In this document: piece after piece, positions 8,181 through 35,696 of the stretch
How positions within the stretch are numbered: position 1 is the stretch's first letter
How the letters are laid out: every line of letters begins with the position of its first letter
Assembly (NCBI GenBank): GCA_021158045.1
Contig: JAGGVK010000053.1
Location: forward strand, 1-35,696
Length of the DNA: 35,696 nt
Direction: 5' to 3'
DNA from: a bacterium
Lineage (GTDB): Bacteria; Patescibacteriota; Minisyncoccia; Minisyncoccales; CG1-02-41-26
Made by a program: the position numbers and the translations under genes
Notes under the pieces: generated by a model
What the model was told of the DNA's origin: nothing
The model's input: the letters and a program-made list of their open reading frames with translations, nothing else
The model's database searches: none

Positions 8181-8460
8181 AAATCTCAAATCTCAAATCT
8201 CAAATCTCAAAATGACATCTCAAAATGCAAAATTAGAAAATTCAAAATGCAAAATTAGAAAAGCAAAATTTCAAATCTCAAATCTCAAAATGCAAAATTA
8301 GAATGCTTGGCTAAGCCAAGCAGCAAGAGAAAAAAGAGATTGCTTCGTCAGTCGCTTCGCTCCTTCCTCGCAATGACAGGGGGAGGAATCGCTTCGCTCA
8401 GGATGGCAATGTGGCGGATGGCGGAGCAATGAGCAAAGAGCAAAGAACATAAAAATTAGA
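8181..8460. repeat. Composite repeat A: (AAATCTC)n and CAAAATG heptamers plus a 41 bp GATTGCTTCG...CTCGCAATGACA unit
   Basis: AAATCTC x4 at 8181-8208; 8338-8378 is identical to 35459-35499 and is the reverse complement (1 mismatch) of 27574-27614 and 27936-27976. Confidence 0.9.
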
Positions 8461-9033: not shown

Positions 9034-9146
9034 TTTCTCTAATTGATTTCTTATCTTATATATGCCAAGATTATATCCAAATATATGCCAAGATTATATC
9101 CAATAGAAAAAACAAGAGACATTGGTATTATCGCTCATATTGATGC
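9034..9146 (+). pseudogene. Orphaned duplicate of the fusA leader and first about 21 codons
   Basis: Identical to 9270-9381 except one extra C at 9050; encodes [21 protein letters not shown] then runs into the insertion. Confidence 0.9.
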
Positions 9147-9381
9147 GTCGCAGTTAACACTGTTCCCCAGAAACCCTCGGTTTCTGGCGGTCGGCCTTCG
9201 GCCTCCCTGTTTTCCTACACGGGAGGATACCCAATCCTCCCGACCCCTCCTTGTGCATCAATATTCGCTTTTCTCTAATTGATTTTTATCTTATATATGC
9301 CAAGATTATATCCAAATATATGCCAAGATTATATCCAATAGAAAAAACAAGAGACATTGGTATTATCGCTCATATTGATGC
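9147..9381 (+). mobile_element. GTCGC-scaffold insertion 1 (fusA 5' end), including replacement gene start 9270-9381
   Basis: Starts GTCGC at the junction; 9185-9220 is identical (36 nt) to 19970-20005; 9255-9264 GCATCAATAT is the reverse complement of junction 9137-9146. Confidence 0.8.
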
Positions 9382-11425
9382 TGGTAAAACTACAGTTACT
9401 GAACGTGTTTTGTTTTACACCGGAATATCCCATAAAATTGGAGAAGTCCATAATGGAGAAGCTATTATGGATTGGATGGCTCAAGAGAAGGAAAGGGGCA
9501 TTACTATTACGTCGGCTTCAACAACTTGTCATTGGATTCCTGAAGGCTTGGAGAAGAAAAAAGAAAACGAATATCAAATAAATATTATTGATACGCCCGG
9601 TCACATTGATTTTACAGTAGAAGTTCAAAGAAGTTTACGAGTTTTAGATGGAGCTATTGTTGTTTTTGACGGTGTAGCGGGAGTTGAGCCCCAGTCGGAA
9701 ACTGTTTGGAGGCAGGCTGATAAATTTAATGTTCCTAGAATTTGTTTTGTTAACAAAATGGATAGAATGGGCGCGGATTTTGACAGAAGTTTTCAGTCAA
9801 TCATAGAAAAATTGTCGCCAAATGCTGTAGCAGTCCAAATTCCTATCGGTAAAGAGGATAAATTTGAGGGAGTGATTGACCTTATTAAAATGAAAGCATT
9901 GTATTTTGAAGGTGACTTTGGACAGGATGTTGTTGAAAAGGAAATACCAGAAAATCTAAGAGAGCAAGCAGCCCAGGCAAGAAAGGAAATGTTAGAAAAG
10001 GTAGCAGCAGAAGATGCAACTTTATTAGAAAAGTTCCTTTCAAACAAGGAAATTACCATAGATGAAATCAGGAAAGTTTTAAGAAAGAGCACTTTAAATT
10101 ATAAGCTAATACCTGTTTTTTGCGGGTCTGCCCTTAAAGATAAAGGCATACAACCTTTGTTAGACGCTGTTTGCTATTACTTGCCAAGTCCTAATGACCT
10201 CCCTCCAGTGAAAGGCACGAATCCTTTAACCGGAGATTTTGAGGAAAGGAAACACTTGGATTCTGAACCTCTGGCTGCTTTGGTGTTTAAAATTGCAACT
10301 GACCCTTATGTAGGAGCGCTTAGTTATTTTAGGATTTATTCCGGCTATCTTAGAAAGGGTTCTTATGTTTTAAATACAACGACAGGCGTTAAAGAAAGAA
10401 TAGGTAGAATATTAAGAATGCATGCCAACCAGAGAGTTGAATTAGACGAGGCTTTTGCCGGAGACATTGTGGCTACTGTTGGTCTTAAGAAAACAAGCAC
10501 TGGACACACCCTTTGCGACCCGGCTCATCCCATTGTTTTAGAGAATATTGCTTTTCCTGAGCCTGTAATCTCGGTGAGGGTAGAGCCGAAAACTCGAGCT
10601 GACCAAGAGAAATTGGTAGTGGCTTTAAAGAGGCTATCAGAAGAAGACCCCACATTTCGTATTAAAGAGGATTTAGAAACCGGAGAGACTATAATTTCGG
10701 GCATGGGGGAATTGCACCTTGAAGTTTTAACTGATAGGATGAAAAGAGAGTTTGGTGTTGTAGCCAATGTTGGCAGGCCTCAAGTGGCTTATAAGGAAAC
10801 TGTTTGCAGCGAGAGCGAGGCTGAGGGAAAGTATATTCACCAATCAGGAGGTAGGGGGCAATATGGCCATGTGTGGCTAAGAATAAAGCCAAAGGAGAGG
10901 GGAGAAGGATTTGAGTTTAAAAATGCTATTAAAGGAGGAATTATTCCTCAAGAGTTTATCCCAGCAGTTAAGAAAGGAGTAGTAGAAGCCATGGGAAAGG
11001 GAGTTCTGGCAGGTTATCCAATAGTGGATGTGGAAGTTACATTGTACGACGGTTCTTTCCACGAAGTTGACTCTTCAGAAGTTGCTTTTAAAATTGCAGC
11101 CGCAGAAGCTTTGAAGTCTGCTTCCCAAAAGGCAAAGCCCGTATTATTGGAGCCGATAATGAAAATTGAAGTTATTGTTCCTTCAGAATTCTTTGGAGAT
11201 GTTATTAGTGATTTAAACAGGAGGAGAGGCATTATTGAGGAGACAAAGGATAGGCTTAGCTTAAAAATAATTGACGCGAAAGTTCCCTTAGCGGAGATGT
11301 TTGGCTACGCTACTGGTTTGAGGTCCTTGACTCAAGGGAGAGGAACGTTTACAATGGAATTTGACAGATATGAGAAAGTACCGGAGAATATAAGTCAGGA
11401 GATAATTGAAGGTAAGAGGAAATAG
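9320..11425 (+). CDS. fusA: Elongation factor G (true start 9320)
   Basis: [41 protein letters not shown] and HEVDSSE. Confidence 0.98.
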
Positions 11426-11658
11426 TAAATTGAGAAAAGTTAAATTCCATTGTTCAGATAGGGGTCGGGGAAGAAGAATTCTTCCCCGTGGCGGAAATCT
11501 CTCTCCAAATCGCCAAAGGCGATTTGGAGGCCACATGAGGTCTCCAATTCCGCTGAAAGCGGAATTGGAGTAATAGCAGGGGTTTTAAGGAGCGAAGCGA
11601 AGCGAGGCTGAGATTGTCGAAGCCGAGCGCCTGCCAAAGGCAGGAGGAGCAGAGCGAC
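11351..11658 (-). mobile_element. GTCGC-scaffold insertion 2 (fusA 3' end, antisense), including replacement gene end 11351-11425
   Basis: GCGAC at 11654-11658 (GTCGC on - strand); scaffold collinear with 19826-20040; 11439-11453 is the reverse complement (14/15) of junction 11659-11673. Confidence 0.82.
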
Positions 11659-11733
11659 ACAATGGAATTTGACAGATATGAGAAAGTACCGGAGAATATT
11701 GCCCAGGAAATCATAGAAGGCAAAAGAAAGTAA
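11659..11733 (+). pseudogene. Orphaned second copy of the last 24 codons and stop of fusA
   Basis: First 41 nt identical to 11351-11391; last 34 nt differ at 12 positions yet encode [11 protein letters not shown] versus [11 protein letters not shown]. Confidence 0.92.
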
Positions 11734-11826
11734 AAAACTTTAATTGTTTTTATTTCATCGTGGTTTTCCTCAAGCAATTTGTTTAATGATTGGTTGAGGT
11801 AAAAAAAGCACGATTGGTTAACAATT

Positions 11827-12120
11827 ATGGAACTAGAAGACATTAGGCAGTTTGTTAATTCTAACAATGAAAAAATTATCTTAGTTGAACATGGAGAGCC
11901 AACAGTTGTTCTGATGTCTTATGAAACCTATAAGGAGTCTTTTGGCGGTAATTTTCAGGAGGGGGAGGGGAAAAGAAATGAAACAAATACAGAGGTGAAC
12001 TTAGCAGAGAAGAAGCCTTTTTTCGAATCTAACGAGCCTGAAGATTTAGTCCCTGGTGATTCTGAATTAGAAGAAGGTGAAAATTATGGAAGTATTTCTA
12101 TTGATGATTTGCCGTTTTAG
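11827..12120 (+). CDS. Small acidic protein with Phd/YefM-like N-terminus and SSB-like C-terminal DDLPF
   Basis: EKIILVEHGEPTVVLMSYETYKE resembles the Phd/YefM beta-hairpin-helix pattern; acidic low-complexity tail ending IDDLPF. Confidence 0.6.
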   Translation: MELEDIRQFVNSNNEKIILVEHGEPTVVLMSYETYKESFGGNFQEGEGKRNETNTEVNLAEKKPFFESNEPEDLVPGDSELEEGENYGSISIDDLPF

Positions 12121-19696: not shown

Positions 19697-19757
19697 TTTA
19701 ATTTTAGATTTTAGATTGTCATTTTTCATTTTTCATTTTTCATTTTTAATTTTCATT
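19649..19757 (+). repeat. Repeat overlapping the rpsQ 3' end, followed by (TTTTCAT)n
   Basis: 19672-19705 is identical (34 nt) to 23800-23833 at the rpsE 3' end; both are preceded by AAATTGAAAAG.GAAA and followed by TTAGATTGTCATTTTTCATTTTTCA. Confidence 0.88.
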
Positions 19758-19786
19758 TGGCTGAGCCCGCTTTAGCGGGACGAAGG

Positions 19787-19825
19787 AATATGATTCAACC
19801 AGGAACAAAATTGAAAGTAGCTGAT
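19787..19825 (+). pseudogene. Orphaned duplicate of the first 12 codons of rplN
   Basis: 39 nt identical to 20105-20143 (MIQPGTKLKVAD); preceded by AAGGA. Confidence 0.9.
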
Positions 19826-20143
19826 GTCGCTTGCCCTCCTGCCTTCGGTAGGCGCTCACTTCATTCGCTTCGCTCCCCAGAAACCCAGCTTTTACTCCAA
19901 TTCCGCTTCAGCGGAATTGGAGGCCACTTGTGGTCTCCAAATTCGCTTTTTGCGAATTTGGAGTATGTTTGGCGGTCGGCCTTCGGCCTCCCTGTTTTCC
20001 TACACAGGGGAGAATTCTTCTCCCCTGACACCCCTTTGCATCAGCTACTTTTGCCTTATTGACTTTAACTGAATTTAAATTTATTTTAGAAACATTATAG
20101 ACTAAATATGATTCAACCAGGAACAAAATTGAAAGTAGCTGAT
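19826..20143 (+). mobile_element. GTCGC-scaffold insertion 3 (rplN 5' end), including replacement start 20105-20143
   Basis: Starts GTCGC at the junction; shares modules with both fusA elements; 20040-20051 ATCAGCTACTTT is the reverse complement of junction 19814-19825. Confidence 0.82.
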
Positions 20144-20476
20144 AATAGCGGAGCTAAAATTGTGCAGTGTTTTAATTTGCCCGGTGGCACGAGGAAACGT
20201 TATGCTCAACTTGGCGATGTAATTGTAGCTGCAGTTAAGAAAGCTGAGCCAAGAAAAGAAGTTAAACTTCACAGTATTGTAAGGGCAGTTATTGTTAGGC
20301 AAAAAAGAGAATATAAAAGAGAAGATGGCTCATATATTAGATTTGGCGATAATGCTTGTGTAATTTTAGCTGATAAAAAAAATCCAAAAGGAAATAGGAT
20401 TTTAGGGCCTATCCCGAGAGAATTAAAGAGGAAAGGATTTGAAAAAATAGTTACAATGGCAAAGGAAGTAGTTTAG
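20108..20476 (+). CDS. rplN: 50S ribosomal protein uL14
   Basis: VADNSGAK, AVIVR, DGSYIRFGDNA and RILGPIPREL. Confidence 0.98.
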   Translation: MIQPGTKLKVADNSGAKIVQCFNLPGGTRKRYAQLGDVIVAAVKKAEPRKEVKLHSIVRAVIVRQKREYKREDGSYIRFGDNACVILADKKNPKGNRILGPIPRELKRKGFEKIVTMAKEVV

Positions 20477-23811: not shown

Positions 23812-23942
23812 AAAAGAGAATTAATTTAATTTTGGATTTTAATTATCATTTTTAGATTGTCATTTTTCATTTTTCACTTTTCATTTTTCATTTTTAATTT
23901 AATTTGATTTTAGATTGTCATTTTTCATTTTTCATTTTTAAT
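23776..23942 (+). repeat. Repeat overlapping the rpsE 3' end plus (TTTTCAT)n, in the slot usually held by rpmD
   Basis: Same element as 19649-19757; TTTTAGATTGTCATTTTTCATTTTTCA occurs twice. Confidence 0.88.
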
Positions 23943-23950
23943 TTATTAAC

Positions 23951-27522: not shown

Positions 27523-28012
27523 GTCGTTACAATGAGCCTTCCTCTCTTGTCATTGCGAGGAGTCTTCCTCTCTTGTCATTGCGAGGAAGGAGCGCAGCGA
27601 CTGACGAAGCAATCTCTTACGCCTGTCATCACAAGAGCTGTAGCATCCCTTAGCCACGAGCGAAGCGTGATGGGACAGGCAGTAAAAATGAAAGATGAAA
27701 AGTGAAAAATGAAAAACTAAAATCTAAAATTAAAAGAAACTTTGCATTTTGAATTGTCATTTTGAGATTTGAGATTTGAGATTTGAGATTTAACTGGGGT
27801 TCTTCGCTTAACGGCTCAGAATGACAATTGGTAGTTGTTCCATAACGAAGCAATGAGATTGCCGCGTCGTCCCGCCTTCGGCGGAACTCCTCGCAATGAC
27901 AAAAAGGAGCATCATTGTGAGGAACCTCCCTCTCTTGTCATTGCGAGGAAGGAGCGCAGCGACTGACGAAGCAATCTCTTTCCCTCTGTCATCTGAGCGA
28001 AGCGAAGTATCT
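27523..28012. repeat. Composite repeat B: several GTCATTGCGAGG palindromic units, (ATGAAA)-type and (GAGATTT)n arrays
   Basis: 41 bp units at 27574-27614 and 27936-27976; 27791-27909 is the reverse complement of 35560-35678 with 6 mismatches in 119 nt. Confidence 0.92.
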
Positions 28013-35157: not shown

Positions 35158-35199
35158 CGAGAAGTATATAGAAATTAGCTGCTATTTTGAATATCCCTA

Positions 35200-35696
35200 A
35201 TTGTTATTCTGAGCCGTTAGGCGAAGAACCCCAGTTAAATCTCAAATCTCAAATCTCAAATCTCAAAATCACCCTGAAGCAGAACAAGTTCGCTACAGGG
35301 CAGGCAATTCGAAATTCAAAATTACATAGAAAGTTCTAAATCCGAAATCCCAAACAAAACTAAATGAGAAATCAAAAATCAAAAATCTAAAGGGCGTTGC
35401 TTAGCTAAGCTAAGCAACGCCCAAAGTAGCGCTCCACTCAGGATGACAGAGGAAAAGGGATTGCTTCGTCAGTCGCTTCGCTCCTTCCTCGCAATGACAA
35501 GAGGGAGAATCGCTTCGCTCCTTCCTCGCAATGACAGGGAGGGAGAGAACTGCAATAACCTCCTTTTTGTCATTGCGAGGAGCTCCGCCGAAGGCGGGAC
35601 GACGCGGCAATCTCATAGCTTCGTCATGGAACGACCACCAATTGTCATTCTGAGCCGTTAGGCGAAGAACCCCAGTTAAATCTCAAATCTCAAATC
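35200..35696. repeat. Composite repeat C (runs off the window)
   Basis: TTCTGAGCCGTTAGGCGAAGAACCCCAGTTAAATCTCAAATCTC occurs twice (about 35207 and 35648); contains 41 bp units; inverted homolog of repeat B and same orientation as repeat A. Confidence 0.92.

Follow-up and report, generated by a model that had tools for sequence, protein, structure and literature searches.

The window analysed here is a 35,696-nt stretch (positions 1 to 35,696 of contig JAGGVK010000053.1, assembly GCA_021158045.1) from a patescibacterium of the order Minisyncoccales, and it contains a fusA gene, encoding elongation factor G (EF-G), whose end is present twice, on the two sides of a short, hairpin-rich insert. 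The coding sequence in use, taken from the open reading frame (ORF) list, occupies 9320..11425 of the plus strand with 701 codons and a TAG stop, and its C-terminus aligns with the EF-G of relatives. The last 25 codons of the gene (11351-11425, the in-use tail) recur on the same strand at 11659-11733 (the orphan tail), 75 nt in each case, within a direct repeat (D9; 11351-11429 versus 11659-11737) of 79 nt and 84% identity. By repeat comparison the opening 41 nt of the two tails, referred to here as the core, are identical (copy 1 at 11351..11391, copy 2 at 11659-11699), and the remaining 34 nt, at 11392..11425 in the in-use tail and 11700-11733 in the orphan tail, contain 12 mismatches. Read in frame, 10 of the 25 codons differ and nine of these are synonymous, counting the exchange of TAG for TAA at the stop; the one amino acid change is between S and A, in a C-terminus read from both copies as [S/A]QEIIEGKRK followed by the stop. 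The two 75-nt tails, the 41 identical nt, the 12 mismatches, the single residue change and the exchange of the stop had been given in a preliminary description of the window and were all confirmed.

We compared both tails with 24 fusA tails from related genomes, retaining only tails of exactly 75 nt. The relatives differ from the core at 4-14 of its 41 positions (mean 9.2), so the identity of the two cores is more than plain conservation. The distal tails, 12/34 apart from each other and with means of 7.7 and 10.0 per 34 against the relatives, have diverged about as far as fusA genes of different genera, nearly always at silent sites, which bears out the earlier claim that the downstream tail is not a dead copy in the course of drifting. 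The orphan tail carries the alanine typical of the family and is nearer to the relatives in 17 of the 24 comparisons (the in-use tail in three, with four ties), which is weak evidence; the serine of the in-use tail is found in no relative examined.

Between the tails lie 233 nt that are non-coding, rich in hairpins and of 51% GC against 36.5% for the genome, and that fold much better than their shuffles on both strands (z = -8.2 and -7.9). No credible ORF, integrase or integrase remnant occurs in these 233 nt, which are overlapped only by spurious entries of the ORF list. By direct reading, a 16-nt spacer (11426..11441, plus strand) runs from the in-use stop and is unlike the native flank beyond the orphan stop. 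It is followed by a 12-nt inverted copy of the target (11442..11453, minus strand), which, read on that strand, is identical to the opening 12 nt of either core and which pairs with 11659-11670 in the folds to form the closing stem of the element. The element body (11454..11658, minus strand) is antisense to fusA, 75 nt ahead of its stop; it starts with GTCGC at 11658, contains several GC-rich hairpins and has a conserved 3' module at 11453-11501. R1, a covariance model of this 49-nt module, scores 70 bits on the fusA-tail element.

The window holds three related inserts, of which the other two lie on the plus strand at the 5' ends of fusA and rplN and were delimited from repeats, R1 and an arm script. 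At the fusA 5' end (9039..9381; repeat D6) the orphan copy extends to 9146, GTCGC starts at 9147 and the inverted target copy is at 9255-9264; the duplicated stretches (9048-9146 and 9283-9381) are 99% identical, the intact gene following on from the second. In the copy at the rplN 5' end (19787..20143; repeats D15, D16, I11 and I14) the element starts at 19826, with an inverted target copy at 20040-20051 and a 53-nt spacer, and the duplication, 19787-19825 as the orphan and 20105-20143 leading into rplN, is 100% identical. The rplN copy and the fusA-tail element are 85% identical over 101 nt. All three inserts have the same order in the direction of the element: target, GTCGC, structured body, a conserved 9-bp hairpin and GACCCC, then a gap of 6-8 nt and an exact reverse complement, 10-12 nt long, of the bases preceding GTCGC, and finally a spacer of about 5-53 nt and the gene end once more in direct orientation, running on into the intact gene. 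In each, a folded core rich in GC is accompanied by an intact gene and by two copies of its end, one inverted and one direct. Because the fusA-tail element is antisense, the in-use tail is the copy on the side of the inverted arm, and the GTCGC side is occupied by the downstream tail, the severed orphan.

None of the three inserts belongs to a known Rfam family at gathering scores, at which a search of the whole window returned only RNase P and two tRNAs; a search by E-value, made for the rplN copy only (19700-20200), gave nothing credible, its best score of 21.9 bits lying below the cut-off of 58.6. Terminator-like hairpins occur in the body of the sense-oriented 5' copies, and a promoter-like site at 20059-20087 in the rplN spacer, both as consensus matches only. 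Both copies of the fusA 5' region also contain a tandem duplication of about 23 nt (9060-9103 and 9295-9338), by which the start codon and the six opening codons occur twice. The upstream ATG leads only to a stop, and the gene really begins at the downstream one (9320 in the in-use copy); this duplication may be the footprint of an earlier event.

Direct repeats around an insertion could be an ordinary target-site duplication followed by neutral drift, or the product of an assembly that has collapsed a second fusA. Short-read assemblies of metagenomes do break at this hot spot: in genomes G217 (loci L094/L095) and G273 (L091/L098) contigs stop inside or beside it with overlapping ends, as expected from an unresolved duplication breaking the assembly. 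The collapsed gene, which the preliminary description had itself named as a possible objection, was looked for in the assembly under study (685 kb in 54 contigs), and tblastn found a single full fusA. Both junctions between tail and element are present without mismatch in Logan contigs of four runs, all from one study, among which the source sample may be included. The 41-nt core forms a separate unitig with a depth of 27 in run X1, about twice that of its neighbours (13.1, 13.7, 7.7 and 7.6), and a 507-nt contig of run X4 spans the gene body, core, in-use tail and element. An assembly artefact at the fusA tail is unlikely, as the preliminary description had argued. Against drift after a simple duplication stand the silent nature of nine of the ten changed codons and the position of all 12 mismatches beyond one sharp boundary (P = 2.1e-5 for their falling by chance within the last 34 of 75 positions, hypergeometric), and the same layout recurs in independent genomes, as described below. 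We regard this pair of explanations as hardly credible.

The element belongs to a family. A search with R1 returned 75 matches in 17 of the 39 genomes of the taxonomic family, with 18 matches in G006, 13 in G046 and 8 in G047; the genome under study, G000, holds four copies. Among 52 distinct copies, 96.8% of the cells of the 3' hairpin are paired and eight of its nine pairs vary in both partners, a level reached by none of 500 shuffles. Of the 56 module matches that were inspected, at least 18 show the gene-end layout in full, with the intact gene on the side of the inverted arm in every case read. The targets found include the 3' ends of gyrB (in two genomes), rplR, pgk, trxB and a DeoC-family gene, as well as tRNA ends. 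The elements are about 130-280 nt long and their inverted arms 10-18 nt; the duplicated stretches range from about 8 to 108 nt across sites, and the arms, which consist of target sequence, are different at each site. The family is apparently undescribed, since literature searches, whose coverage excluded supplementary files and most subscription journals, found no published account of it.

Some members depart from this layout. G006 has 13 compact solo copies (loci including L013-L015, L017, L019, L034, L036, L041, L044, L049 and L056) with their own 5' and 3' hairpins and without a gene-end duplication, several of them directly adjoining the start codons of divergent genes. They suggest recent spread inside one genome, and no long, ORF-bearing autonomous form was found in G006. 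In the solo copies the inverted arm pairs with an adjoining 17-nt partner in a local hairpin, which shows that the element takes the arm and the partner downstream of it along when it moves. At trxB (L055, G016:C9, 470-800) the in-use copy lacks its last codons and stop, joins the inverted arm at a 6-nt overlap and reads 15 codons into the element; the native end is retained by the orphan. An empty trxB site is present in G053 (same-genus comparison of G052-G054).

A search with the tail peptide across 301 genomes of the order found two matches in 13 genomes, and the loci were read for 11 of these. The element lies between two fusA tails in G000, G014, G142, G156 and G178, and a scan for the family added G010. 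Its insertion points in the fusA tail are three, separated by 4 and 10 nt, and at each of them the inverted arm suits the surrounding sequence, so insertion at this tail has occurred repeatedly. The identical stretch between in-use and orphan tails also varies. In G156 it covers the whole tail and ends exactly at the stop, with no differences beyond; it is 61 nt in G178 (five codons differ, all silently), 56 nt in G010 (three codons, all silent), 41 nt in G000 and 0 nt in G142, where 22 of 26 codons differ, 19 of them silently. G082 has an orphan tail without an element about 57 nt past the in-use stop (L092, G082:C5, ~1563-1740), with 15 of 19 codons different and 13 of these silent, which is probably a scar from loss of the element. 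Away from fusA, the two gyrB cases have 7 differing codons (6 silent) and 8 (all silent), rplR has 8 (6 silent) and the DeoC-family gene 6 (2 silent). Over all scored cases 71 of the 84 differing codons are silent. Drift of an unused copy in place would not leave so clean a pattern, and up to recent times both must have served as functional gene ends, each in a lineage of its own. The same fusA hot spot is occupied in G019 (L025, G019:C54, 1184-3480) by what looks like a different, gene-carrying insert: an intact fusA is followed by 2.2 kb with an ORF for a 306-aa protein with a KilA-N domain, and then by a silently recoded fusA fragment that ends at the hot spot.

These comparisons decide several points of the preliminary description. 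Its proposal that the two tails are working ends from different lineages is upheld by the recurrence of silent recoding in G010, G178, G142, G082, gyrB and rplR, and its view of the sharp 41-nt edge as a crossover or homology tract agrees with an identical stretch that varies from nothing to a whole tail and so behaves as a boundary of recombination or of copying; the same variation rules against a target-site duplication of fixed length, as it had argued. The resemblance of the 41 nt at fusA to the 39 nt at rplN, to which it had drawn attention, is a coincidence, with lengths spanning 0 to about 108 nt. It had also predicted that the in-use tail would match those of other carriers; the tail differs from theirs by 11-14/34, and there are at least three insertion points.

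One way to obtain two functional ends without any import would be divergence in place, in which a single duplication arises at insertion, gene conversion keeps the stretch near the element identical, the far ends diverge, and the element comes and goes so that each tail is in use at times. The mismatches of G000, G010 and G178, which cluster towards the distal limit of the homology, would fit this, as would the duplications that end exactly at the stop (G156 and pgk, L050), the limit expected of conversion confined to homology, and the mosaic of the trxB duplication, which is identical, diverged and identical again. However, every excision would remove the in-use tail, and to our knowledge an excised 300-nt circle has no way of persisting; no excised form was seen in contigs of the four runs. 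Divergence at the level of genera (31-35%) would need a long residence, during which an unused copy should decay, and G142 has no identical stretch and yet 19 of its 22 differing codons are silent. Divergence in place is thus, in our judgement, very unlikely.

The reading that we favour, and consider probable, is that the gene end was duplicated around a small, protein-less, hairpin-rich mobile element of a family spread across the Patescibacteria, and that the two distal 34-nt tails come from two fusA lineages, in each of which selection preserved them until recently. As to which of them is foreign, the in-use distal tail (11392..11425, plus strand, stop TAG) was probably imported, having arrived with the element, and the distal orphan tail (11700-11733, stop TAA), which is joined to the downstream flank, would be the original ending of the resident gene. 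Besides the position of the in-use distal tail between the cores, this reading is held because of the inverted arms of G142 and G178, the homologous flanks of their orphans and the solo form of G006. In G142 the inverted arm matches the in-use copy at 13 of 14 positions and the orphan at 11, and the two informative positions both side with the in-use copy. The G178 arm has a variant that is absent from both G178 copies and present in the orphan of G142, so the arm is foreign, and it adjoins the diverged part of the in-use tail. The DNA that follows the orphan is homologous between G142 and G178 and looks native, and the elements of these two genomes have their first 50 nt in common and similar spacers.

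The direction could also be the opposite one, with the fusA body and in-use tail native and the distal orphan tail and downstream DNA imported from another element-bearing lineage by a crossover inside the second core. A pattern of 41 identical nucleotides followed by diverged ones is symmetric, there is no near relative to decide between the two directions, and codon usage is neutral. The G142 arm, which sides with the in-use copy, the mutual homology of the orphan flanks, as expected of native DNA, and the family-typical alanine of the orphan beside a serine found in no relative examined all speak against it, and we consider this reversal improbable.

Several results weigh against import of the in-use tail by a mobile element. 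The nearest genomes are only 78% identical, and the GTDB relatives include none of the same genus; a degenerate scan of metagenome contigs returned three contigs with a fusA body identity of only 66-71% and hence no near relative, and an exact scan with 29 nt of the core had no matches. For the sister cases, same-genus pairs (G049; G052-G054) are merely 72-79% identical. Codon usage scores of the two tails (-10.2 and -9.5) do not separate them, and sliding identity against 11 relatives shows no mosaic signal along the fusA body. The evidence on direction from G142 consists of two nucleotide positions only. The in-use tails of the carriers are unlike each other (11-14/34 differ), so that no single tail has travelled, and at L016 and trxB the copies differ by several amino acids. 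As regards mobility in this population, the contigs of the four runs contain no joint that skips the element and no excised or element-free form, though rare forms are invisible to contigs; contigs built with k = 31, apart from the bridging X4 contig, cannot distinguish integration of the element from the coexistence of a circle with an empty site. Finally, no joining enzyme came to light: reverse transcriptase (RVT_1, PF00078) has no match in G000, G006, G046 and G047, and Y1_Tnp (PF01797) none in G000, G046 and G047, despite their 4, 13 and 8 copies of the element. The enzyme searches covered these two families; GIY-YIG, Xer and IS110-type enzymes were not searched.

If the in-use tail did come with the element, insertion may have proceeded in two steps, as is suggested by the constant precision of the GTCGC junction beside the variable lengths of the arm, spacer and identical stretch. 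The in-use distal tail would have travelled with the element from a donor lineage. In the first step the GTCGC end would have been joined precisely beside the resident target, and in the second the other side would have been resolved by homology between the spare tail borne by the element and the resident tail, at a variable point. This crossover point would be the 41-nt boundary in the present case and would lie at 0 nt in G142, and the severed native gene end would remain on the GTCGC side as an orphan.

The element does not fit the classes of small mobile DNA against which it was examined. A DDE-type miniature inverted-repeat transposable element or insertion sequence has constant terminal inverted repeats and a duplication of fixed length; here the arms are made of target sequence and the duplications range from about 8 to 108 nt. 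For an IS200/IS605-type palindromic element, the duplications are out of place and PF01797 is missing from G000, G046 and G047. A retroelement (group II intron, retron or SINE-like) was rejected on the lack of PF00078 in the four genomes searched and of any Rfam family past the cut-off. There is no ORF between the gene-end copies, as a mobile ORF for a homing endonuclease would have, in a search limited to the insert and leaving a trans-acting nuclease untested.

Replacement of a gene end by an incoming element is known from larger systems. Prophage e14 at Escherichia coli icd provides the gene with a new C-terminus and leaves the old one behind as the pseudogene icdC; their differences are mostly silent, and excision exchanges the two ends (PMC13626634). 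The likeness to the fusA tail lies in a replacement 3' end of an essential housekeeping gene that is carried by the element, an original left as an orphan, and differences that are mostly silent (PMC13626634). However, e14, a prophage of 15 kb, brings its own integrase and uses a single fixed attachment site, whereas the element here is about 130-280 nt long and gene-less, with many 5' and 3' gene ends and tRNAs as targets and an inverted arm specific to each. Of the known systems, e14 at icd is the closest. Phage 21 also integrates in icd.

Integrative mobilizable elements (IMEs) and the cis-mobilizable elements (CIMEs) that derive from them by decay insert at the ends of tRNA genes and at the 3', and more rarely the 5', ends of genes for ribosomal proteins and other housekeeping functions and can accrete in tandem, and one flanking repeat holds the gene end so that the gene is undisrupted (PMC5704250). 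They need a recombinase specific for one sequence and an att core that does not vary, in contrast to the variable repeat length and insertion point seen here and the inverted target copy beside a conserved hairpin. It may be asked whether the insert is a decayed element of this kind, in which the 41 nt would serve as att core for a tyrosine or serine recombinase supplied in trans. Direct repeats that contain the gene end are indeed present (41 nt identical within 75-nt arms), and a replacement end borne by the element is what has been described for IMEs and CIMEs (PMC5704250) and for e14 with icd/icdC (PMC13626634). But the 233 nt have neither an integrase nor a remnant of one, the identical stretches at this single target are 0, 41, 56, 61 and at least 75 nt (0 to about 108 nt over all sites) instead of one constant core, the fusA insertion points are 4 and 10 nt apart, and the many unrelated target genes, each with its own matching inverted arm, are a misfit for a fixed-core recombinase. 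We give such an origin little credence, about as little as divergence in place.

Partial C-terminal duplications of cob and atp6 accompany mobile endonuclease ORFs in fungal mitochondria, and the arrangement is similar in that mobile DNA separates a conserved gene from a downstream duplicate of its C-terminal part (PMC6279837). Those inserts differ in encoding LAGLIDADG or GIY-YIG endonucleases, and the element here has no ORF. Another comparison is with folded single-strand recombination sites (integron attC and the attP of CTX phage) and with hairpin elements of the IS200/IS605 type. The present order of target copy, element, inverted copy and direct copy, with a hairpin by the joining point, may correspond to that of core site, cassette, inverse core site and core site; the paired arms are constant in those systems and change with every target in this one, and no Y1 enzyme was found in G000, G046 and G047.

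A more specific and tentative proposal, which we consider possible but doubtful, is that the element is a programmable homing unit without a protein of its own. The target-complementary arm by the hairpin, as folded single-stranded DNA or RNA, would act as a guide for an enzyme of the host or supplied in trans that joins the GTCGC end to the matching site of an essential gene, and the spare gene end would both protect the gene and supply homology for completing the insertion; such units might jump between genera of Patescibacteria at conserved gene ends.

Other features of the window and of neighbouring loci were recorded as well. Downstream of fusA, a small ORF (11827-12120, 97 aa) has a weak match to the Phd/YefM antitoxins at 21.5 bits, under the cut-off, and ORFs with similar starts trail the orphan tail in G010 and G156. 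A separate repeat family at 8181-8399, 27534-27993 and 35199-35696 consists of a GC-rich 'GTCATTGCGAGGA...' unit beside microsatellite-like runs of AAATCTC; a 137-nt inverted repeat of this family (27773-27909 versus 35560-35696, 96%) flanks about 7.6 kb. AT-rich 7-nt runs (TTTTCAT-like; families D1-D3) lie at 19698-19753, ahead of rplN, and at 23845-23945, ahead of a later gene.

If the reading favoured here is correct, bacteria with tiny genomes are host to a widespread mobile element of a few hundred bases that has no gene and enters the ends of essential, conserved genes (fusA, gyrB, those for ribosomal proteins and tRNAs) harmlessly, because it brings a replacement gene end. The silent recoding would then be direct evidence that such elements, together with short pieces of core genes, move between lineages. 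This would have a bearing on the use of fusA and similar genes as phylogenetic markers, on the assembly of genomes from metagenomes, in which contigs break at the duplications, and on annotation, in which false starts and read-through ends arise at insertion sites. The target-matched arm beside a conserved hairpin suggests a guide-like choice of site, from which a testable mechanism of insertion could follow.

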